Assembly (NCBI GenBank): GCA_937981455.1
Contig: CALJNV010000124.1
Location: 1-42,785, forward strand
Length of the DNA: 42,785 nt
Reading direction: 5' to 3'
Origin: an uncultured Bacteroidales bacterium
Lineage (GTDB): Bacteria > Bacteroidota > Bacteroidia > Bacteroidales > TTA-H9
The notes beneath the pieces were generated by a model, which saw nothing but the letters and a program-made list of their open reading frames with translations, ran no database searches and was not told the DNA's origin. The translations under genes and the position numbers were made by a program. Below are positions 18,101 through 42,785 of this stretch, in pieces. Positions within the stretch are counted from its first letter, which is position 1. Each line of letters begins with the position of its first letter.

Positions 18101-20698
18101 GGCCAAATCGACCTCCAGCGGTTTTTCGCCAGAATAACTCCCCCAATCCGTTAAAGGAGCCAATACACGAAAGCCTGCATATCTTTCATAGGGATACATA
18201 GGTATTTCAACCTGATCGATACTGAATGCTCCCCCTGGCTCAAAGACTTTGGTTGTAAGTATGGCTTTAAGCACTCCCGGCGCATGATATAGGTCAGGTT
18301 TGTAACTAAATGAAACCTTACCCATGGTATCAAGATTGCCCGAAAAAATGACACGTGCCTCAGGCGTAAATGAACTCGACTCATCAAAAAATTGAAACCC
18401 CTTAAATCCATCTGGGGAAAAAGTTCCTTCTTTCAAATTCATCTCGACTACAGCCCGCAAACCTGATGCCGGCGCTCCATGCAACCAGGAAGCCTCCAAA
18501 TGAAAATTGTTCTCTTTTCCAACCTTTAAAATATCAGATGAATTCAAATGAATCTTCAGTCGATTGGGCTCAATGGCCTCAATACTAATATACTTTGTGA
18601 AAATTGCTTGACCTGCCTTCACTTGCACAATCCATTTGCCGGTTGGGGCATTGGGAGAGGTTACCAACTTAAAAGCATGAATGCCACCTATGCCCCGGGT
18701 GCTGAGTTTTTTTGCAACCGTTTGCCTAAAAGGATTCTTTAACTCCAAAATAATAGGATAATCTTCTGGCAATTGATGATACTTATTCTCAAGCATAAAC
18801 CAGAGATGAAGCGTATCACCGGGCCTCCAAACCCCTCTTTCTCCATAAATAAACCCTTTGAGACCTTTTTGCACCGGATCGCCATCCACATCGAAGGCGC
18901 TGAGAGAGAGCTCAGTCCCCTGCGCCATTTTTAAATACGACTTTTCCTTTCCTCTCGAGGCAACAACCAAAAAAGGATCTTCTTTTACCGGTAAAATAAC
19001 CAGCCCATCTTTTCCTGTTTTGCCAGACTCTAATAATAACATCTGATAATCAAATACTTCAACTTTGACGCCGCTCAAGGGTTGACCTGTACGGATGTCG
19101 GCTGCCCAAACCCAAACCTTCCCATCGGCTCCTGTCTTTGCGGTAAGGCTGATATTTGTGACCAAAAATTGTGTATTTATCCAACGCTCGCTGTTGTAAT
19201 AACTCACATGGCAGGGATTGTCCGACTCAGACCATTCGTATCCTCTGGGATAATAATAGTCTACATAATCATCCCTATAATCCCCATAATCATCCCTATA
19301 ATCTCCATATTCTTCCTCATCAACGTCGCTAAACTTTGACCAATCTTCATTTCTGCATGGATATAATGAGTATTGAGGCTTCATGCTGAGCGTGACTCGA
19401 TAAATTGCGCCTGGCTCGGCTTTAATTAGGTCGGTGATATTTACAAAATAGGTCTCCCATTGGGTGGGATCGGCTGTACCACTGGCTTGCAAATTCAACG
19501 TCGTACGCGCCACGACCTTACCCACCTTGCGCAAATTATAGGCATTGCTTAAATTATTATCCTGAAGAAAAAATGGGACATTCTGCTCAAGGACTCGCAT
19601 GACTTTTACATCAACAGCCTTCAGGCCCACAGCGGCAAAAGGAATATTAACGCTTCCATAAGTAGGTAAAATATTCCCACTGTGCAACCACTTCAGTGCA
19701 GGTTTGGGGATAATGCCTTCTATTCGAATTTCTTGATGGTATGAAGCATTGCCGCCCCTTATGTCTTTGATGCCCGGAAAGATTTCAACCCGATTACCCC
19801 CTTTAAAATCCCTGTCGAAGTAGCAAAATAGATGATTCTGGCGTATCATGAAGCGACGGGGAGCTATGCCATCAAGTAAAACCAATCCATGAAGATTTTG
19901 ATTGGGATCGAGGGGCTCGGAGAAGGCAATCCATAAAAAATTTTCTTCGCCAAAAAACATCCGCCATTGCAAGGGCCCTGGAGCTATATTGTCAAACTGT
20001 ACCGCTGTTCCTAATGTCTTAGGGATATAAATGTTGGCCTCCCTTGCGAGAATCTCAACTTTATTATAGGCCTTAAGTCTTCCAAAAGTGTCGCTTGAAA
20101 AATTAAATACCCTGGCACTTGCATCGGCCGTCCAATGCAAATTGCATTTATTATTTTCAACACTCAAATACAATCCTTTTTCAAGGGCTTTAATATCTGC
20201 AGGGTTTGCACTCTTTACCACTCCTGTTGCATAATACTTTGTAACACCCTGGCTATCAAAAGCATGAAGCATCCAGTCGCTCAATTGAAAACCCTGCTCC
20301 ATCACCCTAACCCCCCATTTGAACCGACTTAAGGATTTTGGTACATGGATGAACCGGTCCAGTCGAAGTTCAAAAATGTAAATCTTCCCTTCTTTTAAAG
20401 GCCTTTTAGGTTTGAAAACCAATGTATGGGCATCAACCCATGCAAGATTCCCTTCAACTTTTGGATTCGATGAAATCAAATCATCGGTTTTCCATTGCAC
20501 AAAAAGTGAGCTATCAACAGCAAATGTAAACCTTAGACTAATACTAACATCGGAAGCTACCATCCCTGAGGTATACGATTCAATATAGGGTTCAAAAGCA
20601 GGATCAAAAGCAGGAATCTGGGATTGCTTTGTACAGTTACTCAAACAAAGAACAAGAAAACCGATTAAAGAAATTTTCAGAAATTTTTTCGCAATCAT
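15197..20698 (-). CDS. Bacterial alpha-2-macroglobulin family lipoprotein (YfhM/ECAM-like) with a thioester motif
   Basis: Very large ORF with a lipoprotein-like N-terminus, MIAKKFLKISLIGFLVLCLSNC. The thioester motif GCSEQ (YPYGCSEQTVASLFP) is encoded at 16529-16543. It lies immediately upstream of pbpC, which is the classical pairing. The track start at 20728 is a TTG that overlaps a promoter box, so I use the ATG at 20698. Confidence 0.9.
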   Translation of the reverse strand: MIAKKFLKISLIGFLVLCLSNCTKQSQIPAFDPAFEPYIESYTSGMVASDVSISLRFTFAVDSSLFVQWKTDDLISSNPKVEGNLAWVDAHTLVFKPKRPLKEGKIYIFELRLDRFIHVPKSLSRFKWGVRVMEQGFQLSDWMLHAFDSQGVTKYYATGVVKSANPADIKALEKGLYLSVENNKCNLHWTADASARVFNFSSDTFGRLKAYNKVEILAREANIYIPKTLGTAVQFDNIAPGPLQWRMFFGEENFLWIAFSEPLDPNQNLHGLVLLDGIAPRRFMIRQNHLFCYFDRDFKGGNRVEIFPGIKDIRGGNASYHQEIRIEGIIPKPALKWLHSGNILPTYGSVNIPFAAVGLKAVDVKVMRVLEQNVPFFLQDNNLSNAYNLRKVGKVVARTTLNLQASGTADPTQWETYFVNITDLIKAEPGAIYRVTLSMKPQYSLYPCRNEDWSKFSDVDEEEYGDYRDDYGDYRDDYVDYYYPRGYEWSESDNPCHVSYYNSERWINTQFLVTNISLTAKTGADGKVWVWAADIRTGQPLSGVKVEVFDYQMLLLESGKTGKDGLVILPVKEDPFLVVASRGKEKSYLKMAQGTELSLSAFDVDGDPVQKGLKGFIYGERGVWRPGDTLHLWFMLENKYHQLPEDYPIILELKNPFRQTVAKKLSTRGIGGIHAFKLVTSPNAPTGKWIVQVKAGQAIFTKYISIEAIEPNRLKIHLNSSDILKVGKENNFHLEASWLHGAPASGLRAVVEMNLKEGTFSPDGFKGFQFFDESSSFTPEARVIFSGNLDTMGKVSFSYKPDLYHAPGVLKAILTTKVFEPGGAFSIDQVEIPMYPYERYAGFRVLAPLTDWGSYSGEKPLEVDLALVDKQGNPIREQSSLELSLYRLEWHWWLSQSNTRSAIVENELDDPEVKTFIKLTQGRARYTLPIQDLYGCFLLRVADSLTGHQSSRIIRIGYQWGEQASEARGMIFLKTLKKKVVAGDSASIIIPSISGAQILVSIEAGGKVLDYQWIQSTWIITEFKFTTTPDMAPGVYIYASVVQPWQIYNNDLPLRLYGVTYQEIEYPDAKLEPSINMASEVRAGHKATLSVSEKNGRPMAYTLAIVDEGLLDLTRFATPDPFKAFNAKESLVVKTWDLYSMIVGSFASRMDRIFMVGGDEYRSPHSNLQAQRFKPFVFAKGPFWLKKGETRKHTLDIPEYVGSARVMIVAAGEGAYGSAEKYVTITKPVMVLGSIPRVLGPGEEVKVAATVWRTKSSVKMPIVSLELKGDLKLMGSNEQKVVFNAGQKEKTVFFNIKTGKLSGICNLRFTARWQNETSVWNSDIDLRNPNPVITEVKDYLVKPGQIIRFTQPSIMGSEEKRVLEVSYFPGFNLNRRATELIQYPYGCSEQTVASLFPQLLLKSFVGLDAQEEEKRIQYIRAGIQKLTAMQRPEGGIAFWPGTQTIDQWVTSWVGHFMLEAQKQGFAIPTTFYDAWLNYQRRMAVQWRHQENSSAASVQAYRLFTLALAGKPEMGAMNRLQALSALPQEALLLLAQAYALTGNSEIALELLNRRGAPNGPLNDYDLSLGSVLRNQALQLYVKARLKFDEKENFVLAREIAKKLSGEGYLSTHEIAWAMLALQAYITQEKTHYKPEFVFGFEKKNLIIKPDSPVWYYSFKGGGGKFWLNNKSNGPLYVSLSRTYRPMPGEEMNARSQGLSLEVFYLTSDKKPLDPKHIKQSSDFLVQVKVSNHSGKPLKYGALNLILASGWQILNTRFMQNYDNGEEQNFSWQDIRDDRVYTYFYLGKDESKVFTFKLNASYNGRFFMPAILAEDMYNPSVRALVPGFYTEVVGY
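19265..19306 (-). repeat. In-frame 21-bp tandem duplication inside the alpha-2-macroglobulin gene
   Basis: The two units, 19265-19285 and 19286-19306 (plus strand ataatcatccctataatcccc / ataatcatccctataatctcc), differ at one base. They encode the repeated acidic/tyrosine-rich peptide GDYRDDY GDYRDDY. Confidence 0.85.
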
Positions 20699-20725
20699 GG
20701 CCTGAAATTTAAAAATGCACTTAGC

Positions 20726-20733
20726 CAAATATA
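20726..20733 (-). promoter_or_regulatory. Bacteroidota-type -7 promoter box (TATATTTG) upstream of the alpha-2-macroglobulin gene
   Basis: Perfect TAnnTTTG on the minus strand, 28 nt upstream of the ATG at 20698. It overlaps the TTG that begins the longest ORF. Confidence 0.45.
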
Positions 20734-27968: not shown

Positions 27969-30230
27969 CTAAGCCTGCCTGGCAGGGGCTGCCTGTATGA
28001 AATCGCGTTGCGATTTATAAAGTTGGATTAAAAAATTGGCAAGGTTCTTCGATTCAGCAAGCAAATTTAAAAAAAGAACAGAGTTTTTGGTGCCGGTTTC
28101 ATGCGCTTTGATCCGTTTTACCTGGGTTTTACGGGATTTTTCAATATCGTCTATCATTTTTTGCTGAAGAGCCACTACCTTTTCGCGGTGGGAATAATCA
28201 CCTGTTTCTACTGAAAACTTAATAGCGCGTGTTAACTTCTCAAAGTCATCACAAATATTTTGTAGTTCATTCTTTTGAGAAGGAATTAAGCCTTTATGAT
28301 TGTTTTCAACATGCTGTTGTACAGGGTCAGCAATATAGTTCACACAATGAGCTATCTCACGCAAAAAATCAATTACTTGTACATAAAAATGACCGGCTTC
28401 AAGAGCATCATCCTTCAGATGGTCCACTACATTATGAATGTTATTTTTCATTAATTTACTTTGTTTGTTGAATTCATAGACCTCTTCCAGAATCTTTTTT
28501 AGCTTTTTCCGGTCCTCTTTAAAAAGGGCGTTGAGTGTGCGTTTATAAAGAGAGAAAGCTTGATCAATAGAACGAATGATATCATCAGAGCATCGAGAGA
28601 CAATAGCATTGAGCGAGATTAACTCTGAAGTTTCGGCTAAATCTTTTGCTATTTGGTAATCTTTTTCCCGCTTCAGATAGCTTTTCTGCTGCTTGTAAAG
28701 AAGATAAGAGGCTAAAATCAATAAAGCAATAATTGCGTAAATTTCTCCATAGAAAATTATTGCAGCAAGTAAAAAACTAACGGTAAATGCAATAAAGGCA
28801 GTAAAAAACCATCCGCCAATGACCGTCATAACCCCTGCAACCCTGTAAACGGCACTCTCTCTGCCCCAGGCACCGTCGGCAAATGATGTACCCATTGCAA
28901 CCATGAATGTTACATAGGTTGTACTCAAAGGTAATTTGTGAGAAGTACCAAAAGCAATAAGCATAGAGGCTACCAACAGGTTGACACTTGCGCGGATAAG
29001 GTCAAATGAAATGCCTTTTTTGCGGGCCTCTTCTGATTCTTCACGAGGAGGGGGGCTGAATCGCAAAGAAAGAAAACGTACAAACGATGAAGGGAGAACC
29101 CTTTCGACAGAGTACCCTGTATTTATAAAGAAACGAACTAAAGCTCGTGAAAAAGCATTCGAAGGAAATTTTTCGATACCCTCATCCTGCCGGCTCAAAT
29201 CTACACTGGTGCTAATTACCGTTCTCGTCTTTCGCGAGAAAATCAAAGTAAGGCTCATTAATATACCGGCACCCAAAAGCAGATACCAGGGAGACTTTAT
29301 CGCTCCAGCCAACCCTTCCATGCTAAGAGTGTGCGCATCTGTGCCTGAATGAATATAAATTTTAAATGCCTCATACCCTGCCAGCGGAGCTCCAATAAAA
29401 TTCACTAGATCGTTCCCCGCAAAAGCCATCGCTAAAGAAAAAGTTCCTGTGAGTACTATAACCTTCAAAACATCTAATCGAATGACCCAGATAAGCAATT
29501 GAAAAATTATTGAAAAACCCAGAAAGCAATAGAGCAAAATAAGTGAAGTGTTCGTTTCGAAATATTGTAAAGTGGCTTCGCTAAGAAATGTAGTGCCCTT
29601 AGCTCCTTTAAGCACAAGAAAATAAACGATAGCTGTAAAAGAAAGTCCTCCCCATATACCTCCTAAATATTTTACCTTGTTCTTATAGTTGAAAGTAAAA
29701 AGAATTCGACTGAAGTATTGCACAATACTTCCAATAACAAAAGCAACTACAACCGACAAAAGTATACCTGAAATAATAGCCAGCACTTTTGAGGTATTAA
29801 TATACTGCGAAATACTTCCAACACTTCCCGTTACACTTAATTCTTTGAAGGTTGCAATGGAAACTGAAGCACCCAGCAATTCAAATATAACCGATACTGT
29901 GGTAGAAGTGGGTAACCCCAAACCGTTGAATGCATCCAAAAGAAGGACATCCGTTGTCATCACTGCCAGGAAAATATACATCACCTGGTTAAAATAAAAC
30001 ATTCCCGGATTAAATATTCCGCTGCGAGCTATTTCCATCATGCCACTTGAAAACAATGTTCCAACAAGCAGCCCAAGAAAAGCCACACCCATGATAATCC
30101 TCAATGAAGCCACCTTGCTTCCAATAGCTGAATTCAAAAAATTTACAGCATCGTTGCCTACTCCCACTATCAAATCAGTGATGGCCAATAAAAACAAAAA
30201 ACCCAGAATCAAATAATAAATTTGCTCCAT
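27969..30230 (-). CDS. PiT-family inorganic phosphate transporter fused to a C-terminal PhoU-like cytoplasmic domain
   Basis: Two PiT signature motifs are present (GVGNDAVNFLNSAIGS and FAGNDLVNFIGAPLAG) in a polytopic membrane region of ~510 aa. This is followed by a ~240-aa helical soluble tail (...DDALEAGHFYVQVIDFLREIAHCVNYIAD...) that resembles PhoU/DUF47-type domains. Confidence 0.8.
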   Translation of the reverse strand: MEQIYYLILGFLFLLAITDLIVGVGNDAVNFLNSAIGSKVASLRIIMGVAFLGLLVGTLFSSGMMEIARSGIFNPGMFYFNQVMYIFLAVMTTDVLLLDAFNGLGLPTSTTVSVIFELLGASVSIATFKELSVTGSVGSISQYINTSKVLAIISGILLSVVVAFVIGSIVQYFSRILFTFNYKNKVKYLGGIWGGLSFTAIVYFLVLKGAKGTTFLSEATLQYFETNTSLILLYCFLGFSIIFQLLIWVIRLDVLKVIVLTGTFSLAMAFAGNDLVNFIGAPLAGYEAFKIYIHSGTDAHTLSMEGLAGAIKSPWYLLLGAGILMSLTLIFSRKTRTVISTSVDLSRQDEGIEKFPSNAFSRALVRFFINTGYSVERVLPSSFVRFLSLRFSPPPREESEEARKKGISFDLIRASVNLLVASMLIAFGTSHKLPLSTTYVTFMVAMGTSFADGAWGRESAVYRVAGVMTVIGGWFFTAFIAFTVSFLLAAIIFYGEIYAIIALLILASYLLYKQQKSYLKREKDYQIAKDLAETSELISLNAIVSRCSDDIIRSIDQAFSLYKRTLNALFKEDRKKLKKILEEVYEFNKQSKLMKNNIHNVVDHLKDDALEAGHFYVQVIDFLREIAHCVNYIADPVQQHVENNHKGLIPSQKNELQNICDDFEKLTRAIKFSVETGDYSHREKVVALQQKMIDDIEKSRKTQVKRIKAHETGTKNSVLFLNLLAESKNLANFLIQLYKSQRDFIQAAPARQA

Positions 30231-30554: not shown

Positions 30555-31139
30555 ATGGCACGAAATACTGACCCTTTGCGCCTCGATAACATTCATAAAG
30601 CCACCATGCACATGGTGGTTAAAAATGGTTATGGGGGAGCATCCGTTTCATCGATTGCAAAACAAGCAGGAGTAGCAGAAGGTTACCTGTATCGCTTTTA
30701 CAAAGGCAAAGCGGAACTTGTGAATGATCTATTTTATAAAGTTCTCAGCGAAGTTGCCGACCATATGGAGAAAGTCTTAATCCATGCACAAAATATTGAT
30801 GAAGTGCTTGACGAATTGCTGGATCAGATGCTAAAGCTCACCCATAATACCCCGGAAAAAATCATGTTTTTGTATAAGCTGATGCACGATCACAACTTTA
30901 GAATGGACGATAATTTGCGGGATCGTATTTTCGGGATTTGCAAGTATTTTCGGGAGTTTGGAGCACAAACAGGGCAGGTGGACCCTGAAATTTCAGAAGA
31001 GAACATTTATTTGCTTTGTGTGGCTTACCCCATTTCTTTTATCAATTCACGGCTCAAAGGTCTTTTCTATACTCAAAAACTCGATAAGGAAGAACTCATT
31101 GATGTTAAATCATTGATATTAAAATCGTTAAAAAAATAA
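30555..31139 (+). CDS. TetR/AcrR family transcriptional regulator
   Basis: 194 aa. The N-terminal HTH region is MHMVVKNGYGGASVSSIAKQAGVAEGYLYRFYKGKAEL, followed by a helical ligand-binding domain. It is the first gene of the efflux operon. Confidence 0.88.
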   Translation: MARNTDPLRLDNIHKATMHMVVKNGYGGASVSSIAKQAGVAEGYLYRFYKGKAELVNDLFYKVLSEVADHMEKVLIHAQNIDEVLDELLDQMLKLTHNTPEKIMFLYKLMHDHNFRMDDNLRDRIFGICKYFREFGAQTGQVDPEISEENIYLLCVAYPISFINSRLKGLFYTQKLDKEELIDVKSLILKSLKK

Positions 31140-31143
31140 TAGC

Positions 31144-32655
31144 ATGAAAATGAAGACTCTTATAGCGATGGCAGGATTGGTGTTGACCTTAGGAGCAGGC
31201 TACTTAAAGGCCCAGCGCCCGATTACCTGGAAAGAAGCCCTCGACCTGACGATAAGCAACAATCCAGCCTTGAAACAAGCCGACTTTCAAGTGAAGGAAA
31301 AGAAAGCATTGCAACAAGCTTCGCAAAGTTTATTCTTGCCCCAGGCCGATATCAGCGCAAATTACATGAAGCTTTCTGACGACATCCACCTCGATCTTAC
31401 ACCAGTGCGCGATGCCATCACACCTCTGTATGGAACCTTAGGAAAGTATGGAGTATTTGCGGGGGTTCCTAACCCCGACCCGGCAACTCAACATATTATG
31501 CCCATCTTACCCGATGACATCTCAACCCAGATTGTAAGGCAAAAAATGCTAGAAGGGTTGGAAAAGGTTCAAAATGGTGAATGGGATCAAATGATCCAGA
31601 AAAAAGAGTTTGCTACACTTCAGGCTTCCGTTAATTGGACGCTGTATGCCGGAGGAAGAATAAGGATGGCCAGCCGGGTAGCAAGTTTACAAAGTGAAGA
31701 AGCTGAATGGAAAAAAAGACAAGTGGTCGGAGATCTCATAGCAGAGTTAGCCCAAAGATATTATGGAGTAAATCTGGCATTACAGGCTGTCAAGGTAAGA
31801 GAAATGGTACTCGATGGCATGATGCGCCATTTAAATGATGCCACACGACTCCATGAACAAGGCATGATCGCAAAAGCCGAACTACTAAACGCAAAGGTAT
31901 ATACATCGCAAGCCCAGCGAGAACTCGACAAAGCCCGCCATGAATTGGAGACTGCTCGCGAAGCCCTTTGTAATACCCTCGGCCTGCCAGACAATGAAAT
32001 ACCTATGCCAATATCTCCACTATTTTACTTGGATAGCCTTCCCTCGGTCAATTATTTTCTGGATCAAGCCCTGCGCAATAATCCCCAATTGCGTCAGGTG
32101 GAGACAATCAGCCAGCAGACAAAAGCAGGAGAAAAAGCGAGTTTGGCCACTCTTCTTCCAGCCGTAGGGGTTAGAGGCAGCTATGATATAGCCAACAAAG
32201 ACCTTTCGGAACAAGCACCTCAATGGATAATGGCTGCGGGTTTGCAATGGACACTTTTCGACGGCACCGCCAGAATCAAAAGATTACAGGCGGCAAAAAT
32301 GAAAACCCATCAAGTAAAAGAAATTCAAAAAAAAGCAGAGGCTGATATAAACACAATGATTATCAAATTATATAATGATTTAAACATTTACCTGGAACAA
32401 ATATATCAAATCGAAAATGATCTAATGTTTACCGACGAGTTGGTAAGGGTGAGAGAAAAAGCATTCGAAGAAGAAATGGCTCCAGGCACCGACGTTACCG
32501 ATGCTCGGCTTTTGCAAGCAAAAACTCGCATAGAACGTTTACAGGCCATGTATGACTTTGATACTACTCTTGCCCGACTACTTCAGATTGCCGGTATGCC
32601 GGAACAATTTACCTATTGGCAGACATCGAATAAGGCAAAAACCGGATCACTTTAA
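31144..32655 (+). CDS. TolC-family outer membrane efflux protein
   Basis: 503 aa with a signal peptide (MKMKTLIAMAGLVLTLGAGYLKAQ). It opens with the ITWKEALDLTISNNPALKQA motif typical of OEP proteins. It has two coiled-coil/OEP repeats, the second beginning FLDQALRNNPQLRQ. Confidence 0.85.
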   Translation: MKMKTLIAMAGLVLTLGAGYLKAQRPITWKEALDLTISNNPALKQADFQVKEKKALQQASQSLFLPQADISANYMKLSDDIHLDLTPVRDAITPLYGTLGKYGVFAGVPNPDPATQHIMPILPDDISTQIVRQKMLEGLEKVQNGEWDQMIQKKEFATLQASVNWTLYAGGRIRMASRVASLQSEEAEWKKRQVVGDLIAELAQRYYGVNLALQAVKVREMVLDGMMRHLNDATRLHEQGMIAKAELLNAKVYTSQAQRELDKARHELETAREALCNTLGLPDNEIPMPISPLFYLDSLPSVNYFLDQALRNNPQLRQVETISQQTKAGEKASLATLLPAVGVRGSYDIANKDLSEQAPQWIMAAGLQWTLFDGTARIKRLQAAKMKTHQVKEIQKKAEADINTMIIKLYNDLNIYLEQIYQIENDLMFTDELVRVREKAFEEEMAPGTDVTDARLLQAKTRIERLQAMYDFDTTLARLLQIAGMPEQFTYWQTSNKAKTGSL

Positions 32656-32688
32656 TTCATTAATAATCAAACATAATTCTTCAACGCG

Positions 32689-33717
32689 ATGAATACATCA
32701 AGAGCAAATGAAATCAGGAAGAACGGCTTCATTCCAGCCGCCCTTGGGCTTGTTATTGTAGCCTTGTTTTTTAGCTATTCTGTTTGGATTCTATCCATTC
32801 CCAAACCTTTTGAGGTGCAGGGTGAGGTAGATGCTACACAAGTAAAAGTTGCTTCGAAACTCACAGGAAGGGTAGATAGTATTGCTGTACGAAAAGGAGA
32901 GAAGGTTGAAAAAGGCCAACTGCTTTTCATCATTCACAGTCCTGAAGTGGAGGCCAAGTTAGAACAGGCCAGAGCTGCCCTCGAGGCCGCTGAAGCCCAA
33001 AACCAAAAAGCCATCATAGGCGCACAGCGTGAAGACATTGAGGCAGCATATAACAGTTGGCTGAAAGCTGAAGCCGCCGCAGAACTTGCCGAAAAAACCT
33101 TCCGCCGCATCGAAAAGTTGTATCAGGATGGGGTAGTACCGGCTCAAAAACGCGATGAGGCAGAAACGCAATATAAAGTGGCCCGGCAAACCGCCCAGGC
33201 AGCAAAAGCACTTTACGATAAAGCTCTTAAGGGAACCCGTCCAGAAGATAAGCAAACGGCAAAAGCTATGGTTCACAAAGCCAATGCAACCATCAGCGAG
33301 GTAGAAGCCTATTTAACCGAAACCCGAATCTACGCCCCCATAGCTGGTGAGGTTTCAAACATTATTGCCGAAAAAGGCGAAATAGTTACTGCAGGCTACC
33401 CAGTACTGACCCTGGCAGACCTCAATGATTCCTGGATTAGTTTTAACCTGCGCGAAGATCTGCTGGCTGATATTCGGCAGGGAAGCCCACTCAAAGCATT
33501 TATTCCCGCTTTAGGGAACCAGGAAATTCAACTAAAAATAACTTATATCAACGCCCTGGGAAACTTTGCCACCTGGAACGCTACAAAAACATCGGGCGAC
33601 TTCGACCTGAAAACTTTCGAGGTGCATGCCCGCCCCCTAAAAAAAGTCGAAGGCCTGCGTCCTGGAATGAGTGCTTTGGTAGACTGGAATCAATTGAGAG
33701 CTTCTCAAAAAAAATAA
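32689..33717 (+). CDS. HlyD-family membrane fusion (periplasmic adaptor) protein, YbhG-like
   Basis: It has a single N-terminal TM helix, a lipoyl-like motif (VKVASKLTGRVDSIAVRKGEKVEKGQLLF), a long Ala/Glu/Gln-rich coiled coil, then IYAPIAGEVSNIIAEKGEIVTAG. Confidence 0.88.
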   Translation: MNTSRANEIRKNGFIPAALGLVIVALFFSYSVWILSIPKPFEVQGEVDATQVKVASKLTGRVDSIAVRKGEKVEKGQLLFIIHSPEVEAKLEQARAALEAAEAQNQKAIIGAQREDIEAAYNSWLKAEAAAELAEKTFRRIEKLYQDGVVPAQKRDEAETQYKVARQTAQAAKALYDKALKGTRPEDKQTAKAMVHKANATISEVEAYLTETRIYAPIAGEVSNIIAEKGEIVTAGYPVLTLADLNDSWISFNLREDLLADIRQGSPLKAFIPALGNQEIQLKITYINALGNFATWNATKTSGDFDLKTFEVHARPLKKVEGLRPGMSALVDWNQLRASQKK

Positions 33718-33723
33718 ATCGGC

Positions 33724-34899
33724 ATGAAAAGCCTCTTAAACTGCATCTTCGAAGTAATAAAACGTGAATATGAGCGGTTTAATAGTCGGGCCACCTATGC
33801 TTTTTTTGCATTTATTGGTCCATTGGTAGCTTTTACGCTTGTCATATGGCTTTTCTCGTACAATGTACCCCGAGAATTACCCGTGGCACTGGTGGATGAG
33901 GACTACACTACGCTGAGTCGAAAACTAGCCTCTGCTGCCAACGCCACACCTATTGCAGACCTACACTCCTATCCCGATTTCGCTGCGGCAAAGAATGCCT
34001 TGATGAAAGGGCAAGTAGATGCCATTTATTGGATCCCTGCGAAAACCGAGGAAAAATTGTTGAGAGGCCTGCAAGCTGACGTGGTGCTTTATCTCAACAA
34101 CACCAATGTACTCAAAGGAGGACTAATAACAGCAGGCATCATGAAATCGTGCTTAACCCTTTCGGCAGGTATTCAGGTGTTAAGCCGCACCAAAAGAGGG
34201 GAATCGTGGGAACAGGCCATTGAAGCGACCATGCCTGTAATGCCGGATACTCACATCCTTTTCAATCCCTACATCAACTATTCTTACTTCCTGGCTTCTA
34301 TGCTGATTCCGGTTATGTTAATCGTCTTTGTATTAATGGGCTCGACGTATGCCATCGGCACAGAGCTTAAGCAAGGCACAGGGCCTCAGTGGCTTGCTGC
34401 AGCCAGGGAAAACATCTGGGTGGCCATTCTAGGTAAAATGCTACCCTATACCCTTATTTTTCTCATTCAGGCCTGGATAATGGATTTATTACTATTTCAT
34501 TACCTCGAAGTTCCATTCCATGGACATTTGCACCTCTTGATTATAACTCAGATGCTACTCATTCTGAGCTATCAATTTCTTGCGGTTTTTCTGGTAGCTC
34601 TTACATCCAACCTCCGTCTATCTCTTTCTTTGGCTGCTGCCTACACCATGATGGCCCTCACTTTTTCAGGTCTCACCTACCCTCTGGCAGATATGCCACC
34701 TCTGGCCCGTAGTTTTGCCAATCTATTCCCGTTTACTTATTATTTGCAAAATTTTATTGGACAGGCCTTGCGCAATGAACCTATAGCCAATGGTCTCTCT
34801 CCTATGATGTGGCTCTGGGCGTTTATCGTACTGGGAACCCTTTTTGTGCCCAGGCTTCGATACATCCTAACCCATGAAAAATACTGGGGAAAAATCTAA
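33724..34899 (+). CDS. ABC-2 type transporter permease (YbhS/YhhJ-like)
   Basis: 391 aa. An N-terminal TM helix is followed by a large extracytoplasmic loop (VALVDEDYTTLSRKL...) and then about five C-terminal TM helices. It is paralogous to the next gene. Confidence 0.82.
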   Translation: MKSLLNCIFEVIKREYERFNSRATYAFFAFIGPLVAFTLVIWLFSYNVPRELPVALVDEDYTTLSRKLASAANATPIADLHSYPDFAAAKNALMKGQVDAIYWIPAKTEEKLLRGLQADVVLYLNNTNVLKGGLITAGIMKSCLTLSAGIQVLSRTKRGESWEQAIEATMPVMPDTHILFNPYINYSYFLASMLIPVMLIVFVLMGSTYAIGTELKQGTGPQWLAAARENIWVAILGKMLPYTLIFLIQAWIMDLLLFHYLEVPFHGHLHLLIITQMLLILSYQFLAVFLVALTSNLRLSLSLAAAYTMMALTFSGLTYPLADMPPLARSFANLFPFTYYLQNFIGQALRNEPIANGLSPMMWLWAFIVLGTLFVPRLRYILTHEKYWGKI

Positions 34900-34911
34900 A
34901 TAAGGGACTTT

Positions 34912-36120
34912 ATGAAAAAGACCAAACGCTTTCTCAATCATATTTCTGCCTTTTGGTACGACGAGCTCCGAATTATTTTCCACGACTGGGGCGCCATATT
35001 GGTATTTTTTGTTGCCATACTGGCTTATACTGTCATCTATTCATTAGCCTACCAAAACGAGGTGTTGCGTGAAATACCTGTTGCCCTGGTCGATCTCGAT
35101 CATTCGGCTTCCAGCCGCAGATGGGCCCGAATGATTGACGCTTCGGAACAAATTCACATCACTATAAAACCTACCAGCCTGCAAGAAGCACGCGACTTAT
35201 TTTACCAAGACAAGGTCAAAGGCATAGTGCTTATTCCATCAGAATTTGAAAAACAATTACTTGCAGGCCGTCAAGCCATGATACCAGTTTATTGCGATGC
35301 CAGCTATTTTCTTTACTATAAACAGGTTTACACTGGAGTTATTTCTACTCTTACACATTTTAATGGAACGATTAAAGTGCAAAAGACTATGATGGGAGGC
35401 AATGGGTATCAACAAGCAATAGCTGCATCCGAACCCATAAGTTTCCATTACCACTATCTTTTTAACCCTTCCGGCGGTTATGGTAGCTTTGTCATGCCCG
35501 GCATCATTCTCATCATCCTACAACAAACATTGCTCATTGGGATAGGATTGTTAGGTGGAACAACACGTGAACGCAACTATTTCAACCACAACCTGGGTGA
35601 TAAAGTTATCCCGGGTGGGGCAACATCGGCTGTATTGGGCAAAGCACTGGCCTACATTACCGTCTATATTTTTACATCAATCTACGCGCTGGTATGGGTT
35701 TACCACTGGTTTGGATATCCTGATAAAGGGGAAGGCATAACTATCATACTGCTCATGTTACCTTACTTACTTTCAGTGGCTATGATGGGCCTGGCCATCA
35801 GTGTACTTTTTAAAGAAAGGGTAGATGCCTTGATGTTTATGGTATTTTTATCGCCTGTAGTCCTTTTTCTGAGCGGTTTGTCGTGGCCAGCTACCTCAAT
35901 TCCTCCGGCATTATACCAATTAGGTAAAGTATTTCCCAGCACGCATGCAGTGCCAGCATTTATTAGAGTGAGAAGCATGGGGGCAAGTAAGGTTGACATT
36001 GGATATGAATTATCTATACTCTGGCTTCAGGTTTTTGTTTATTTTGTTTTAGCCGTAATTTCCTTTTCATTGGCCCGCCGTCGCTTCTTCAACATTCTGT
36101 TGAGCCGTAGACCCCTCTGA
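34912..36120 (+). CDS. ABC-2 type transporter permease (YbhR/YhhJ-like)
   Basis: 402 aa with the same topology as the preceding gene (VALVDLDHSASSRRW... loop, C-terminal TM bundle). Confidence 0.82.
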   Translation: MKKTKRFLNHISAFWYDELRIIFHDWGAILVFFVAILAYTVIYSLAYQNEVLREIPVALVDLDHSASSRRWARMIDASEQIHITIKPTSLQEARDLFYQDKVKGIVLIPSEFEKQLLAGRQAMIPVYCDASYFLYYKQVYTGVISTLTHFNGTIKVQKTMMGGNGYQQAIAASEPISFHYHYLFNPSGGYGSFVMPGIILIILQQTLLIGIGLLGGTTRERNYFNHNLGDKVIPGGATSAVLGKALAYITVYIFTSIYALVWVYHWFGYPDKGEGITIILLMLPYLLSVAMMGLAISVLFKERVDALMFMVFLSPVVLFLSGLSWPATSIPPALYQLGKVFPSTHAVPAFIRVRSMGASKVDIGYELSILWLQVFVYFVLAVISFSLARRRFFNILLSRRPL

Positions 36121-36145: not shown

Positions 36146-36153
36146 TACTTTTG
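36146..36153 (+). promoter_or_regulatory. Bacteroidota-type -7 promoter box (TACTTTTG) upstream of cysS
   Basis: Perfect TAnnTTTG, 22 nt upstream of the ATG at 36175. It overlaps the TTG (36151) that begins the longest ORF. Confidence 0.45.
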
Positions 36154-36174
36154 CAAGTCGCAAGCCCACACGTC

Positions 36175-37653
36175 ATGAATAGCATCCAACAAAAAATATT
36201 TCTTTACAATACACTTACCCGCAAGAAAGAAGAGTTTGCTCCTAACCATCCACCTTATGTGGGCATGTATGTATGCGGCCCCACAGTTTACGGCGATGCA
36301 CATTTAGGACACGCCCGGCCGGCTGTGACCTTTGATGTAATCTATCGTTACTTAAAATTTTGCGGATATAAGGTACGTTATGTGCGAAACATTACCGATG
36401 TGGGCCACCTTGAAAACGACGCTGATGAAGGCGAAGATAAAATTCAGCGCAAAGCCCGGCTTGAGCAACTCGAACCGATGGAAATAGTGCAACGCTACAC
36501 CAACAGCTACCATCGGAACATGGACCAACTGAATGTGCTCCGACCCGATATTGAGCCTCGTGCGACAGGTCATATCATAGAGCAACAGGCGCTGGTAAAA
36601 AAAATTCTGGAGAATGGATTTGCTTACGAAAGTGACGGTTCTGTATATTTTGACGTAGAAAAGTACAATCGCAAATATCCTTATGGTATTCTGTCAGGCC
36701 GCCGGCTCGAAGAGTTGCAAGCTTTTACGCGTGAGCTTGAAGGCAGCAGCGAAAAACGCAGTCCTTACGATTTTGCCTTATGGAAAAAAGCACAACCCAC
36801 GCATATCATGCGCTGGCCCTCACCCTGGAGCGACGGTTTCCCGGGCTGGCACTTAGAATGTAGCGCAATGGGGGCTCGTTATTTGGGAGAAACTTTCGAT
36901 ATCCACGGGGGGGGTATGGATCTGATTTTCCCTCACCATGAAGCCGAAATCGCTCAAAGTATGGCTGCTACAGGTAAACAACCTGTTCGCTACTGGATTC
37001 ACAATAATATGGTGACCATTAACGGTCAAAAAATGGGAAAATCACTCGGTAATTTCATCACACTCGACGAAATCTTTCGTGGGAAGCATCCGCAACTACA
37101 GCGGGCATATAGCCCCATGAACATACGGTTTTTTATCCTTCAAGCCCATTATAGATCTACTCTTGATTTTTCTAATGAAGCCCTTCAAGCTTCTGAGAAG
37201 GGGTATAAAAGGCTCCTGGAAGCCTATCGCACACTTCATACCCTATCGCCTGCACAAGAATCTACTTTCGACGTATCGAAATTACGACATAATTGCTTTG
37301 ATGCCATGAATGACGACTTCAATACCCCAGTCGTCATTGCCCATTTATTCGAGGGGGTAAAAGCAATCAATAGCACAAAAGCGGGAACAGAACAATTGAC
37401 TTCAGAGGATATTGAATCACTCAAAGACACTTTCCGAACATTTATCTTCGATATCCTTGGACTTCTCGACGAAAGCACTCTGGAAAATACACATCTGATC
37501 GAGGAACTCGTCGGCCTTTTGATTGAAATCCGATGGGAAGCCAGAGCACGTAAAGATTGGGCTACCAGCGATCGCATCCGCGATAGACTTAAAGATATCG
37601 GCATTCAACTCAAAGACAGCAAAGAAGGGACAGAATGGAGCTACATCACCTAG
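36175..37653 (+). CDS. cysS: Cysteine--tRNA ligase
   Basis: Class I synthetase motifs are present: HIGH-type ([16 protein letters not shown]) and KMSKS-type (KMGKSLGN). The zinc/cysteine-site context is WHLECSAM. I use the ATG at 36175 ([14 protein letters not shown]). Confidence 0.95.
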
Positions 37654-37769: not shown

Positions 37770-40700
37770 TTAAAAACCTGGATTTGCTTCTTTAACGTGA
37801 ATCTGGATTACCGCTTGGCGTTTTTTGCCGTCCATTTTCACCCAAAGAGGATGATCAAACCTAATGTGTTTAAAAAATTTTGTCCGGTTAATGAGCGGCT
37901 GATTGTTTAATAATTCATAATTAATAAAATTTTCTTTGTTAAAGTGCTGAATGGAGAAATAACCCACATTCATACTTGTAACATTGTGGAAAAAATGTGA
38001 ACCTGAAGAAGCATCCAGAGGAAAATCATCAAGGGCTGTTTCTACGATTACCTTGGCCTGGGAAATCATAGGCCAGGCCACGGGAATACCTATCCAGCGG
38101 TCGCGTGTACCCCAACGGCCGGGGCCTATTAAAATGTATTTTTTCTCAGCCTTAATCATTTCTTGATTTAAAGCATCAATTTCGCGGGCCATTTCTTCAG
38201 TCATGCTTTTGTCGAAATCGGAAGGGTCTACAAAAATCACATCCTGAATATTGTCGATCAATCCATTACCCATAGTTCGAGTAGACGAAAGCACGAGAGA
38301 GGCCGGGTCAATACGTTCGAAGTCAATTTCGTAGTCCTGGGCTGAACCCAACAACGGTTTGATTTGCAATAAGTAAAAAGTGCCTCGTCCCTGCGCATCG
38401 CGAGTTAGGTCTACGGCAAATTCGATCTCTACAGGTGCACCCATGGCCTCCCTCACTACATCGAGAGAAATTTCTAGGGTTCGCGACAGGGGGATATAAT
38501 TGTATTTCAATATATCGGCAAAATTGAGAACCCTTGGGCCGGGCTTGGAAGTACCAGGACTCAAAACGTGCGTATCGGGATTATATACTGAAGCTAAATG
38601 CTTCAGATTTCCATGTCGTTCGGCGTCGTCAAGTTCAAGCTTGATCAAGCCCGCCTCTTCTCCCCGATTTAATAAATCTATCTCAATGTTTTTTAAATTG
38701 ACAGCGTAGAAATAGACCTGTGAACCTTTGTACAAGTCGCGAGGGGTTAAAATTTCAAGATTGGGGTAAGCGGGCGAGAATCGGTAAGCCTTTTCTCCCT
38801 CCACTACATACCTGCCTAAGCCCAACGCCAATACAGCAAAACCTTCCTCTGGTTTCATATGGGCAAAAGGGTAATAGTTGTACGACTGAGCCACCCCGCT
38901 GATATGGGGGTAAAAATACGATTCAAATTTTTGCCCTACAACCTCTTGAATTACCACAGCCATACGCTCTTCTTCTATCTTGTAATGAACCGCTTGTATG
39001 TACGCTTTGGCGGTTTTTGAGAAAACACTTGCATAAACCAGTTTTACGGCATCCGCACATTGCCGAGCTCTGTTTACAGGGTCGGGATGGTTATTAGGAA
39101 TAAGAAAAGTTTCGAAAATACCTGCAAAGGGTTGCATCATGCTATCCTCAAATAACCCTGAAGATCTTACCGCCAGGGGCTTGTTGATTGCCATAACCAC
39201 CTTTCGAATACGGCCCATCAGCAATTCGCTCAACTTAGCTTCAAGAAAAGCTTTTCTAATCTGTGCTTCATCCTCACTATGCAATGCAATATCCCATAGC
39301 TTGTTGCGCTCCATGAATCCCTCAAACTCATCGGTACCAATAATAAATGTTTTGGGTGCTCGGATGTTGATGTTTGGGATAATTTGATGAAAATCAAAAT
39401 TATAAATAAGAGTATTGATAAAGGCTACTCCTCGTCCTTTACCGCCCAGGGCACCCGAGGCCATCGAAAGTATAGTAGATTCATCGATCAGGTAGGCTTC
39501 ATCCCAGGGAATAACTTTACCACGATTTTGCTCGTTTCGATGCTGTACGATAGCTTCCAAAAGAAATTTGCGAACATCTTCAGGTTTCTCAAAATGTTCG
39601 AGCCGGAAGGGATAAATGGTTTTTGCGATCTGTACCTCACCCCGCGCCATAAACCATAAAGAAAAATGATTGCGTCGGGCATGATAAATCAACGAATCGT
39701 CGGGGATGGTGCGAAGCAACTTCTCAAATTCGCGCAGGGTGCGAGCCGTTGCAATAGGACGTCCATTGGCATCCTTATAAACAAAACTACCGAATCCTAA
39801 ATAAGTGCCTATAAAATATTTGATATCCTGAACCAAGGTATCCGATTCTTTATTAATGAAACTTGCTTTCAACAGAAAAGCCCGGTGCGAATTTTCAGGA
39901 TCTGATGACTGAATGATAACAGGAAGATCCTTATGATTTTGTCTTATTTCTTCGGTCAACTTAAAGCCTGCTTCTTCATCCCATACATTGTTGCGCTTAA
40001 ACTTTACATCAGTAATTACGCAGAGCATGAAATCACGATACTTATGATATATAGCAATAGCTTCTTCATAATCGGAAGCAAGCAAAATTTTAGGTCTGGC
40101 TCGTAGTTTCAGCACCTTGTATAGCTCGTCGGCGTTTACGTCTTCAATAAGTTGCCGGGTTTGGTCGAGTACGATAGAATACAAGAGCTGTAAATACCGA
40201 GAATAGTATTTCACACTGTCTTCAACCAAAAGAATAACGCGAACAAGACCCACCCGAGTATCGTTTTCAACATTGACCCTGTCTTCCAAATGTTTCACCA
40301 TAGCAAAAAATATCTTGCTATCGCCGTTCCACACAAATAGTTTATCAATGTTGTGGGTTAGTGATGGATTGCGCTCAAAATAAGCAAGCTCAGCATTGTT
40401 GTTGAGTAAAAGATAAACGGGTATATAGGGAAATTTTTCTCGAATAGTTCTGGAAAAATTCACAGGCATTTGTTTATCAGCCCCTACCATCATAATTACC
40501 ATGTCGTAATGGCGTTCCTGGAGGTTTGCCAAAGCCTCTTCTGCTGAAGAAACTCCAGTAATCCGGGGCACAGAAGTAAGGTTAAGGTGATAATATTCTC
40601 CCAAAATATGCTCTGAGAATTGGCCTTCACGTTCGATACTATAAGCATCATAGAGCGTAGCAACCAGCAAAATTTCCCTTACTTTAAAAGGCATAAGGTC

Positions 40701-41975
40701 ATGAAAAATATCACGGGTATAGTTGCTCCGGTTGAGAAAACGCTGAAGAAGCATTTTAGAATTGAGCAGCGACGGGGGTTTACCTTCCTGGGGCTCTTCT
40801 TTTTTATGCCCTACGAGCTCTCGTCCCCTCAGGGCATTTAAATAACCTGCCACCAATGAAGCGATGTTAATGAGCAATTGTCGCTCTTCCTTAAGAAAAG
40901 GGCCCTCGTCGAGTTCGGGAAAGCGCCGGGAATAAAAAACTTCAAGTGTTCCTTTCTTGTGGTCAATGGTTTCAAACTCTTGCTGCTGAACCCAACGGCT
41001 TTCAGAAAAATTTGTAGAAGTAAATTGTTTACCCTCATAAGTAATCCGTGCACAGGCATAATCGGGGTATTGCCAGGCCTGGGGCAAAATATTCACCAAT
41101 TTCTCAAAAGTCTCTTCAATGGATTTGGCTTCCCTTAGCAAGGCTGTTGTTTGGTTTATTGCAGAAAGCTCTTTTAATCGCTCGCGGGTCACCTGCTTAT
41201 CTTCTCTACCCTTCACACTGTTGAGGTATCCAGCTATAATGCCAGCAATGTTGTCAATCAGGTTGCGTTCTTCTTTTAGAAAGGGCCCTTCGTCGAATGC
41301 TGGAAAATCCTGTAAATAAAATACTTCCACAGCCCCAGTCTTTCCGTCAATGGTTTCGAAGTGGGCGGTCATCTTCCATTGCGAGGTAATAAAATTAGGA
41401 CTGGTGAAAACGGCTGTGTCATAAATGATTCGGGCCGTGGTATAATCGGGATATTGCCAAGCTAAAGGTAGCAAAGCAGCTATCTCGCGTAAAGTGTCGG
41501 GCACCGAACGTCCTTGCTTGATAAGCAGCGTTGTTTTATTGATAGCTTCCAATTCTTTCAGACGTTCGCGAGTAAACATCTGACTCTGTCGCCCTATGAT
41601 ACGATTGACGAATCCTTCCATGAGTCGTGCAATCTGATCAAGTGTGGCCTGATCATCCTCATGAAAACGCTTTTCGTCCTCAGGTGAATAAACGATTTGG
41701 AGTAAACCTTTTTTCCCATCAAAAGTTTCGAAGCGCGACTCAATGCTGTTGTTTGTGGCCCTGAACCTTTCAGTGCATGAAAGCAAGTTGTCGTATATCA
41801 CCCTTACTCCACACCCCTCTCTGTTGCAAAAAGCATCAGCTAGCGTTTGACATATTTCATCCATCACTGGCTTAATCTCCATTATCTCGGTTCGGGTTAC
41901 CTCCTCGATACGTCTCAAGAGGTTTAGATGATTCCGATTGTTAATCTCTTCAGATTTATTATCCTTTTCTTGCAT
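37770..41975 (-). CDS. Large multi-domain signalling protein: three tandem sensor-like modules, a pseudo-receiver, a receiver, a PEP/pyruvate-binding (PPDK_N-type ATP-grasp) domain and a conserved C-terminal domain
   Basis: 1401-aa ORF with an ATG start. The ATP-grasp signatures are GGKGRGVAFIN, PLAVRSSGLFEDSMMQPFAGIFETFL, MAVVIQEVVG, SGVAQSYN and GLGRYVVEGE. The second receiver has ILLVEDS, CVITDVKF, PVIIQSS and a later FINKES. The first receiver-like region (REILLVAT...DMVIMMVG) lacks the acceptor Asp. I see no GGxTSHAAI-type phosphohistidine motif. Confidence 0.85.
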   Translation of the reverse strand: MQEKDNKSEEINNRNHLNLLRRIEEVTRTEIMEIKPVMDEICQTLADAFCNREGCGVRVIYDNLLSCTERFRATNNSIESRFETFDGKKGLLQIVYSPEDEKRFHEDDQATLDQIARLMEGFVNRIIGRQSQMFTRERLKELEAINKTTLLIKQGRSVPDTLREIAALLPLAWQYPDYTTARIIYDTAVFTSPNFITSQWKMTAHFETIDGKTGAVEVFYLQDFPAFDEGPFLKEERNLIDNIAGIIAGYLNSVKGREDKQVTRERLKELSAINQTTALLREAKSIEETFEKLVNILPQAWQYPDYACARITYEGKQFTSTNFSESRWVQQQEFETIDHKKGTLEVFYSRRFPELDEGPFLKEERQLLINIASLVAGYLNALRGRELVGHKKEEPQEGKPPSLLNSKMLLQRFLNRSNYTRDIFHDLMPFKVREILLVATLYDAYSIEREGQFSEHILGEYYHLNLTSVPRITGVSSAEEALANLQERHYDMVIMMVGADKQMPVNFSRTIREKFPYIPVYLLLNNNAELAYFERNPSLTHNIDKLFVWNGDSKIFFAMVKHLEDRVNVENDTRVGLVRVILLVEDSVKYYSRYLQLLYSIVLDQTRQLIEDVNADELYKVLKLRARPKILLASDYEEAIAIYHKYRDFMLCVITDVKFKRNNVWDEEAGFKLTEEIRQNHKDLPVIIQSSDPENSHRAFLLKASFINKESDTLVQDIKYFIGTYLGFGSFVYKDANGRPIATARTLREFEKLLRTIPDDSLIYHARRNHFSLWFMARGEVQIAKTIYPFRLEHFEKPEDVRKFLLEAIVQHRNEQNRGKVIPWDEAYLIDESTILSMASGALGGKGRGVAFINTLIYNFDFHQIIPNINIRAPKTFIIGTDEFEGFMERNKLWDIALHSEDEAQIRKAFLEAKLSELLMGRIRKVVMAINKPLAVRSSGLFEDSMMQPFAGIFETFLIPNNHPDPVNRARQCADAVKLVYASVFSKTAKAYIQAVHYKIEEERMAVVIQEVVGQKFESYFYPHISGVAQSYNYYPFAHMKPEEGFAVLALGLGRYVVEGEKAYRFSPAYPNLEILTPRDLYKGSQVYFYAVNLKNIEIDLLNRGEEAGLIKLELDDAERHGNLKHLASVYNPDTHVLSPGTSKPGPRVLNFADILKYNYIPLSRTLEISLDVVREAMGAPVEIEFAVDLTRDAQGRGTFYLLQIKPLLGSAQDYEIDFERIDPASLVLSSTRTMGNGLIDNIQDVIFVDPSDFDKSMTEEMAREIDALNQEMIKAEKKYILIGPGRWGTRDRWIGIPVAWPMISQAKVIVETALDDFPLDASSGSHFFHNVTSMNVGYFSIQHFNKENFINYELLNNQPLINRTKFFKHIRFDHPLWVKMDGKKRQAVIQIHVKEANPGF
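40821..41924 (-). repeat. Intragenic triplication of a ~125-aa sensor-like module (copy 1 degenerate, copies 2 and 3 well conserved)
   Basis: Copy 2 (~41190-41573) and copy 3 (~40821-41189) share TRERLKEL.AIN.TT.L, LP.AWQYPDY..ARI.Y, F.S.NF..S.W, FETID.K.G..EVFY and DEGPFLKEER.L..NIA...AGYLN. Copy 1 (~41574-41924) keeps only the FETFDGKKGLLQIVY core. Confidence 0.8.
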
Positions 41976-42015
41976 ACCGATTAAAGATTTTTCATTTGCC
42001 GATAGCGGGTGCTCT

Positions 42016-42023
42016 CAAAATTA
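42016..42023 (-). promoter_or_regulatory. Candidate -7 promoter box (TAATTTTG) upstream of the 1401-aa gene
   Basis: Perfect TAnnTTTG on the minus strand, 41 nt upstream of the ATG at 41975. Confidence 0.4.
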
Positions 42024-42180
42024 ACGCAATTAGTCAACAATCCGGCAGATAAATCATGAATCCGAATATCGCGGCAAAGCCATTAAGGGAAACACGGATA
42101 AAACATCCGTAGGGGTTTGAATTTAAAGCCTATCATAACAAAATGCCATATAAATCCGGTAAAATTGTTCAACGTATTAA

Positions 42181-42785
<605 letters not shown>

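Follow-up and report, generated by a model that had tools for sequence, protein, structure and literature searches.

Contig CALJNV010000124.1 of an uncultured Bacteroidales bacterium (assembly GCA_937981455.1) was analysed over positions 1 to 42,785, a stretch of 42.8 kb that we refer to as the window. On its reverse strand, at positions 37770 to 41975, lies a gene for a protein of 1401 amino acids in which receiver domains, an ATP-grasp domain of the PPDK_N type and a C-terminal domain (CTD) follow one another (ATG start, stop codon included; taken from the open reading frame list and the translation). The gene cysS (36151-37653, forward strand) is convergent with it, and the 5' part of gdhA, encoding the NADP-specific glutamate dehydrogenase (GDH), is divergent, starting at 42211 on the forward strand and running off the window at 42785. 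The product of this gdhA is 83% identical over 190 amino acids to a protein from a related locus (L002) that scores 775 bits on the NADP-GDH equivalog model of NCBIfam (NF006929). The 235-bp intergenic region between the two divergent genes (41976-42210, read from the sequence) presumably holds both promoters; a promoter and terminator scan of the gene flanks found nothing above shuffled expectation, with a sigma-70 consensus that does not cover Bacteroidota promoters. An earlier note on this DNA, made from the sequence alone, had given the same two flanking genes in the same orientations and had seen no obvious partner gene nearby. That last point is revised here, as in the family to which the 1401-residue protein belongs no neighbour is as strongly conserved as gdhA, from Bacteroidota to Archaea.

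Domain architecture of the 1401-residue protein

From its N to its C terminus the protein consists of three repeats, a degenerate receiver, an intact receiver, a helical linker, the ATP-grasp domain and the CTD, all encoded on the reverse strand. The PPDK_N-type ATP-grasp nucleotide-binding domain (residues 842-1209; positions 38349-39452; key residues K846, R937, E1183/E1185 and Q1204/K1206) was matched by the Pfam family PPDK_N (PF01326) with 133 bits against a cut-off of 27 (E=1.7e-38), so that the assignment made in the earlier note survives scoring with a profile hidden Markov model (HMM), a test which that note had itself named beforehand as able to refute it. An AlphaFold2 model of residues 740-1401 reached a predicted local distance difference test score (pLDDT) of 80.5 and a predicted template modelling score (pTM) of 0.80, and a Foldseek search with this model returned rifampin phosphotransferase, phosphoenolpyruvate (PEP) synthase, HpeI and PPDK at E=1e-8 to 1e-11, the best PDB matches being 5hv1 (E=8e-11) and 2ols (E=5e-9), with 9goj and 1kbl also among them. 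BLASTP against E. coli PpsA aligned the AVRSS..ED..FAG..ETFL core, and the GGKGRG (containing K846), EIEFAVD and LLQIKP motifs are likewise present. With these nucleotide-site motifs in place, the ATP-grasp site looks functional. The NCBIfam models for PEP synthase, PigC/RedH and rifampin phosphotransferase matched over their first ~200 positions only and far below their cut-offs, and a phmmer search of the whole protein against PDB sequences gave noise-level matches only.

Two stretches of the protein were recognised by Pfam Response_reg (PF00072; 33.8 bits against a cut-off of 30.2). The better of them, residues 614-704, lies in the second receiver (~residues 578-735; positions 39771-40244), which has a long helical insertion after strand 1 and carries a complete phosphorylation site made up of E585/D586, the acceptor D656, S690/S691 and K709; these residues are kept in the Bacteroidota homologues, in the 50%-identity representatives and in the archaeal homologues. 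The first receiver (~residues 425-560; positions 40296-40703), placed by the second Response_reg stretch, the family alignment and its motif positions, lacks the acidic pair, the acceptor Asp (MVIMMVG) and the Lys (FVWNGD), and the latter two are missing from it in all groups compared. Between the intact receiver and the ATP-grasp domain runs a DUF5752-like linker (residues 743-830; positions 39486-39749) with the motif YHArrNHFSLW..ARGE, which is helical in the model and matches Pfam below the cut-off (E=0.0022, residues 743-820); DUF5752 is recorded for many homologues too. No Pfam match to the HisKA/HisKA_3 or HATPase_c domains of classical sensor histidine kinases was found in the protein at E<=1.

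The N-terminal part is built from three related modules. Repeat 2 (residues 131-258; positions 41202-41585), with the motifs AWQYP and DEGPFLKEER, is 56% identical to repeat 3 (residues 259-390; positions 40806-41201, delimited by repeat comparison and a repeat HMM) at E=1e-55 and scores 2e-53 with the HMM, and repeat 1 (residues 20-130; positions 41586-41918) is a diverged copy with 25-29% identity to repeats 2 and 3 (E=1e-12 to 1e-15; HMM 2e-25). Orthologues have one (~1150 amino acids), two (~1280), three (~1400) or four repeats (~1560; the series was seen in L003, L009, L027, L034, L080 and other loci). As the count varies from one to four by whole modules, the input region therefore expands and contracts modularly. 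Pfam found no match at E<=10 in 22 repeat sequences, the sole match of the repeat profile in the PDB was the Nlh2 GAF domain, weakly (E=0.0057) and over the first helix only, and hhalign gave 0.1% against the GAF domain of PtsP. Searching the databases with a divergent repeat copy returned only 23 small proteins of ~223 amino acids, with no annotated domains and no kinases among them, in a word-index search that is insensitive for short queries. The metagenomic proteins P0389-P0411 (~223 amino acids) join a coiled coil to a single copy of the repeat (AFQYPE ... DEGPFLKEE), and one of them comes from a Thermoplasmatota bin.

The CTD (residues 1210-1401, 192 residues; positions 37773-38348) is specific to the family and was delimited by conservation in 33-140 diverse sequences. 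It always lies C-terminal to PPDK_N and falls into 1612 clusters at 50% identity (E<=1e-3). Its two motifs, GxGRWG (1284-1289) and an S-x-G-[ST]-H-F-F loop bearing His1327, show the strongest conservation in the family, and N1270, G1284, G1286, R1287, W1288, G1289, G1296, P1298, E1312, S1323, G1325, H1327, F1328 and Y1339 do not vary in a set of 33 sequences at 30-50% identity to the query. Modelled alone, the CTD reached a pLDDT of 88, with confidence dropping over the His1327 loop. A hidden swivel domain was looked for and not detected: Pfam gave no match to 33 diverse CTDs at E<=10, PEP-utilizers (PF00391) included, and at E<=1 neither PF00391 nor the PEP/pyruvate TIM barrel (PF02896) was found anywhere in the 1401-residue protein; NCBIfam gave no match to the CTD; its profile hit no dikinase and no Enzyme I among PDB sequences; its model matched no PDB fold better than E=0.04 at a template modelling (TM) score of ~0.2, with no dikinase among the 50 best; and hhalign gave 3.7% against E. 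coli PpsA and 0.3% against PtsP. Two other identities were also set aside. A VAMP7 profile match (E=0.012) that would make the CTD a Longin domain was judged to be chance, as it covers a short stretch and has no fold-search support, and a Pol-beta nucleotidyltransferase, suggested by GxGRWG[ST]xD, was rejected for the lack of a DxD motif and of any fold match. The CTD stands in the place of the swivel domain and has a flexible loop with an invariant [ST]-His, so that it is the most evident candidate for a phosphoryl carrier, and on conservation His1327 is the likely residue.

Much of this agrees with the earlier note, which had described the same domain order, the split into a degenerate and an intact receiver, the lack of a GGxTSH-type swivel domain and a conserved-looking C-terminal segment that proves to be present and to contain the most conserved part of the family. 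Its three N-terminal modules are borne out by the repeat identities as well, whereas the ligand-sensor role that it gave them is not, no ligand-binding family being assignable.

A widespread family linked to glutamate dehydrogenase genes

Among 8000 candidates scored from a search of 5.8 billion proteins, more than 4500 were significant matches, and the two CTD peptide motifs occur in at least 595 species genomes, nearly all of them from Bacteroidales, Marinilabiliales and Lentimicrobiaceae and including the cultured genus Marinifilum. With these numbers and the 1612 CTD clusters, the word "orphan", which the earlier note had applied to the protein, cannot be kept in the sense of rare. The top 120 homologues of the 1401-residue protein are 47-89% identical to it over its full length, and the core architecture is found in Bacteroidota, Thermoplasmatota and Bathyarchaeia. 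The product name that NCBI gives to the family is "PEP/pyruvate-binding domain-containing protein". The protein shares the family's domain order and the GxGRWG ... S-x-G-x-H-F-F motifs that are invariant in the 33 diverse sequences. A search from a family representative returned only proteins of ~1000-1015 amino acids with the order REC-REC-DUF5752-PPDK_N-CTD (REC being the receiver), many from Thermoplasmatales and one from Bathyarchaeota, from which we take the ancestral unit to be a protein of ~1000 amino acids; the 1401-residue protein is a Bacteroidota variant to which N-terminal repeats have been added. Stand-alone PPDK_N plus CTD cores of ~570-625 amino acids were dismissed as probable fragments; one of them, P0156 on a contig of 2 kb, aligns with the ~1015-residue proteins from end to end.

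To describe the genomic setting, open reading frames were called and clustered in 80 related genome loci, 14 of which end at a contig edge. NADP-specific GDH is the commonest neighbour, lying within two genes in 42 of the 80, and gdhA, 2-oxoacid:ferredoxin oxidoreductase or Nfn/Stn-like genes lie within two genes in 58. In Bacteroidota two arrangements are seen: gdhA divergent and upstream, as in the window, sometimes with a REC-LuxR regulator in between, or the series oorA-oorB, long paralogue, short paralogue, gdhA. The regulator is an orphan REC-LuxR (GerE) protein of ~217 amino acids, found between gdhA and the family gene in 10-11 of the 80 loci (L001, L002 at 5268-5921, L003, L006, L009, L010, L054, L077, L078 and L080) with no histidine kinase adjoining. 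Other recurrent neighbours are 2-oxoacid:ferredoxin oxidoreductase, NfnA/NfnB-like pairs (annotated as a sulfide-dehydrogenase-like protein and an "NADPH-dependent glutamate synthase", TIGR01316) and NuoE/NuoF/GltD-like sets resembling Stn-type transhydrogenases, all of which we take, from what is generally known of Nfn and Stn, to feed NADPH or 2-oxoglutarate to GDH.

The same link is present in all three archaeal loci (3/3). On a 1.9-Mb Thermoplasmatales chromosome the order is glnA (divergent), gdh, the family gene and NuoE-like plus GltD-like genes, and on a 227-kb archaeal metagenome contig it is glnA (divergent), gdh, the family gene and nfnA-nfnB. On a Bathyarchaeota contig the family gene comes first, followed by a regulator gene, gdh, a NuoE/NuoF-GltD fusion and then glutamate synthase. 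In Thermoplasmatales as in Bathyarchaeota, gdh, the family gene and the redox genes share one strand. Among six distant representatives at 50% identity, gdh directly precedes the family gene on the same strand in two. The gdh linkage is thus frequent, bacterial as well as archaeal and independent of arrangement, and it is not universal. The picture of an orphan with incidental flanks gives way to that of a family member with a conserved gdh partner. The absence of a histidine kinase, which the earlier note had also reported for the vicinity, holds for the whole window.

In 32 of the 80 loci a second paralogue of ~990 amino acids (REC-REC-DUF5752-PPDK_N-CTD, with no repeats) directly follows the long one on the same strand, as at L005:5499-8486, L030:9981-12947 and L053:10072-13059; the window has cysS in this position instead. 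The long and short paralogues may form a heteromer. A further variant, L091:4792-7968, is encoded downstream of gdh and of an ordinary family member and contains one repeat, a helical region, PPDK_N and the CTD (GPGRWGS ... FGTHFFQ), with no receiver; it ends in a Pol-beta-type nucleotidyltransferase domain (GS...DIDLL), a hint that proteins may be nucleotidylylated in this system. Bacteroidota-type gene order was also met in L011 (SACF01000021.1) and L045 (JAADHC010000029.1), from metagenome-assembled genomes labelled Alphaproteobacteria and Chlorobiota, labels that may reflect mis-binning or transfer.

Elsewhere in the window, an alpha-2-macroglobulin gene (A2M; 1843 amino acids) adjoins one for a PBP1C-type transglycosylase/transpeptidase (803 amino acids) at 12770-20728 on the reverse strand, the usual A2M-PbpC pair. 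An LpxC-FabZ fusion (10100-11509, reverse strand) lies inside an lpxD / lpxC-fabZ / lpxA cluster, and a PHO4-family phosphate transporter of 753 amino acids (27969-30230, reverse strand) has two Pfam stretches, the best-scoring being residues 25-327, and some of its length may be unassigned. Directly upstream of cysS, an efflux operon (30555-36120, forward strand) encodes a TetR regulator, an outer-membrane factor, an HlyD-type adaptor and two ABC-2 permeases, with no ATPase gene seen among its members.

Proposed role and competing explanations

We tentatively propose, stopping just short of calling it probable, that the protein is a receiver-controlled ATP-grasp enzyme of the PPDK lineage and regulates, post-translationally or metabolically, the node of NADPH-dependent ammonium assimilation, which consists of NADP-GDH together with its suppliers of NADPH and 2-oxoglutarate. 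Its chemistry and its target we infer as follows. A kinase encoded elsewhere would phosphorylate D656, and this signal, together with any ligand of the N-terminal repeats, would turn the C-terminal enzyme on or off. The ATP-grasp domain would use ATP to phosphorylate the invariant His1327 in the flexible loop of the CTD, which would do the job of the missing swivel domain while having no detectable relationship to it. The phosphoryl group, or the phosphorylated protein, would then act on GDH or a partner, and ammonium assimilation would be adjusted. Invariant CTD residues of catalytic type (R1287, E1312, S1323 and H1327) speak for this proposal, and so do the constant place of the CTD behind PPDK_N, the low model confidence of the His loop within an otherwise confident domain, the gene linkage described above and the precedent of VadK, which tunes methylcitrate-cycle enzymes. 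A bolder form of it, in which the family represents receiver-gated protein kinases or dikinases of a new class that carry the phosphoryl group on a histidine of a previously undescribed domain instead of a swivel domain and covalently switch NADP-GDH or its NADPH-supplying Nfn/Stn partner, we regard as distinctly unlikely. If true, it would provide a nitrogen-status control device for anaerobes, bacterial and archaeal, that have neither a phosphotransferase system (PTS) nor NtrBC, and such a covalent switch could explain the reversible in-vivo inactivation of GDH that was reportedly observed decades ago in Bacteroides fragilis.

Several observations weigh against a regulator of this kind. By Pfam, PDB profile, fold search and hhalign the CTD has no significant similarity to any phosphohistidine domain, and His1327, its role being read from conservation, could instead bind a metal or a substrate. 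Residue 1206 is Lys in this subfamily, as opposed to Arg in most relatives and in PpsA. No cognate kinase for D656 was identified. Of the six distant representatives, three have unrelated neighbours and one lies on a contig too short to judge, and gene neighbourhood cannot in any case separate a regulator of GDH from an enzyme that works on a metabolite of the same pathway. Nor did the literature yield a function or an experiment for the family, DUF5752, the CTD or the gdh link, in keeping with the earlier note, which knew of no characterised function for the architecture.

The protein could, then, be a receiver-regulated small-molecule kinase or ligase acting on a glutamate/2-oxoglutarate metabolite, with the CTD as its substrate-binding domain in the manner of the rifampin-binding domain, an explanation that we think unlikely on balance and nonetheless take seriously. 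All characterised PPDK_N enzymes except VadK, a truncated PPDK, act on small molecules; the top folds are rifampin phosphotransferase, PEP synthase and HpeI, and the top NCBIfam models PigC/RedH and PEP synthase; the conserved residue set of the CTD is of pocket type; and the operon-like place between gdh and nfnAB in archaea suits a pathway enzyme equally well. However, receivers normally gate signalling outputs and not bulk metabolic enzymes, and signalling proteins typically show tandem paralogues and input repeats that vary in number. The known small-molecule dikinases, moreover, all need a swivel His domain in cis or in trans, none of which is encoded nearby, and there is no obvious missing step from 2-oxoglutarate to glutamate. 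Quite unlikely, in our judgement, is a non-canonical sensor histidine kinase in which the ATP-grasp domain would phosphorylate His1327 and this would pass the group to the protein's own D656, to a separate LuxR-type regulator of gdhA transcription, or to both. The orphan REC-LuxR gene found between gdhA and the family gene in 10-11 of the 80 loci, with no kinase adjoining, would fit such a scheme, but neither the window nor most of the loci contain the regulator. With its input repeats at the N terminus the protein has a layout that recalls sensor kinases, yet its receivers precede the catalytic part, as would be expected of a regulated output. There is also no HisKA/HATPase kinase nearby in the window, and VadK has been described as a PPDK-derived histidine kinase, although we know of no precedent for His-to-Asp transfer from a PPDK-type His.

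Two further explanations concern the gene neighbourhood and the CTD. The adjacency to gdhA might be inherited gene order that has no functional meaning, the protein belonging to an unrelated signalling pathway; most of the 80 loci do come from one phylum and hence are non-independent, and several distant family members have unrelated neighbours. This is very unlikely all the same, as the link recurs in Archaea, in distant bacterial subfamilies and in three gene arrangements, and by inference rather than computation two single-copy genes would come to lie within two genes of each other by chance in about 1 of 1000 genomes. The CTD, for its part, might be an extremely diverged swivel phosphohistidine domain bearing insertions, which would make the protein a VadK-type truncated dikinase fused to receivers. 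The order of its elements loosely parallels that of PpsA, in that in both a G-x-G strand after the QxRP strand, a hydrophobic strand and an "IV[ET]" strand are followed by a Gly-rich loop ending in [ST]-H and then a helix, and hhalign places the start of the CTD on the linker or start of the PpsA swivel domain. That alignment has a probability of 3.7%, though, PF00391 was not detected at E<=10 in any of 33 diverse sequences, and dikinases and Enzyme I are missing both from the PDB profile matches and from the 50 best folds of a confident model (best E 0.04, TM ~0.2), so that we consider this explanation highly improbable.

A regulator of GDH would matter for the physiology of these organisms. 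In many anaerobic Bacteroidota GDH is the main ammonium-assimilating enzyme, many of them, like many archaea, have no PTS-Ntr system, and to our knowledge the short-term regulation of GDH in Bacteroidota is not understood. Literature linking the family to such regulation was not found. A large unstudied family that stands beside gdh and transhydrogenase genes in two domains of life is a concrete candidate regulator. The characterised members of the PPDK lineage that we know of all use a swivel phosphohistidine domain, and the family would extend the chemistry of that lineage. The REC-PPDK architecture has already been catalogued; the chance that the family embodies a new regulatory mechanism is moderate. 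There is also a practical consequence for annotation. The labels "pyruvate, phosphate dikinase" and "PEP synthase" that family genes receive from current annotation pipelines are very probably wrong and not to be trusted, and as they stand they can mislead metabolic reconstructions. Of the three features that define PEP-utilising dikinases, the protein lacks two.

Comparison with known systems

With the PEP-utilising dikinases (PPDK, PEP synthase, rifampin phosphotransferase) the family protein has in common the PPDK_N domain and its GGKG, AVRSS..ED, FAG..ET, IEF and Q-x-[KR]-P motifs. In contrast to them, it has no swivel domain, no PEP/pyruvate TIM barrel and no rifampin-binding domain, an unrelated CTD of 190 amino acids taking their place, and two receivers and one to four repeats precede its ATP-grasp domain. 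[quoted passage not shown] Like VadK, the family protein is PPDK-derived and has no PEP/pyruvate domain, and like VadK it would regulate enzymes of central metabolism instead of making PEP and would be tied to one metabolic node. VadK, however, keeps the canonical His domain and has no receiver, whereas the His domain of the family protein is undetectable and its node is GDH.

The combination of a receiver with PPDK was listed as "Bacteroides-like", with no function given, in a 2018 census of archaeal two-component systems, which noted it in archaeal metagenome bins and wondered about contamination (PMC5847659). The CTD, the missing swivel domain and the gdh linkage are not described there, and the archaeal genes reported here have archaeal-type surroundings, on contigs 1.9 Mb and 227 kb long. 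The two-subunit aromatic dikinases (phenylphosphate synthase, and HpeHI, PDB 9goj) illustrate that a PPDK_N polypeptide with no His domain of its own is possible, and HpeI is among the top folds. In those systems, though, the gene for the swivel subunit adjoins the ATP-grasp gene, and there is no such gene near members of the family.

Enzyme I-Ntr (PtsP) is a GAF domain fused to a PEP-utilising phosphotransferase and senses nitrogen status. By analogy only, the family protein would resemble it as an enzyme of the same superfamily that forms phosphohistidine, has a small-molecule input domain at its N terminus and is tied to nitrogen status. The two differ in that no sequence relationship is detectable for the repeats (hhalign 0.1%) or the CTD (0.3%) and in that the phosphoryl donor of the family protein would be ATP and not PEP. 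It is nevertheless possible that the family protein is a functional analogue of Enzyme I-Ntr in Bacteroidota and archaea that have no PTS.

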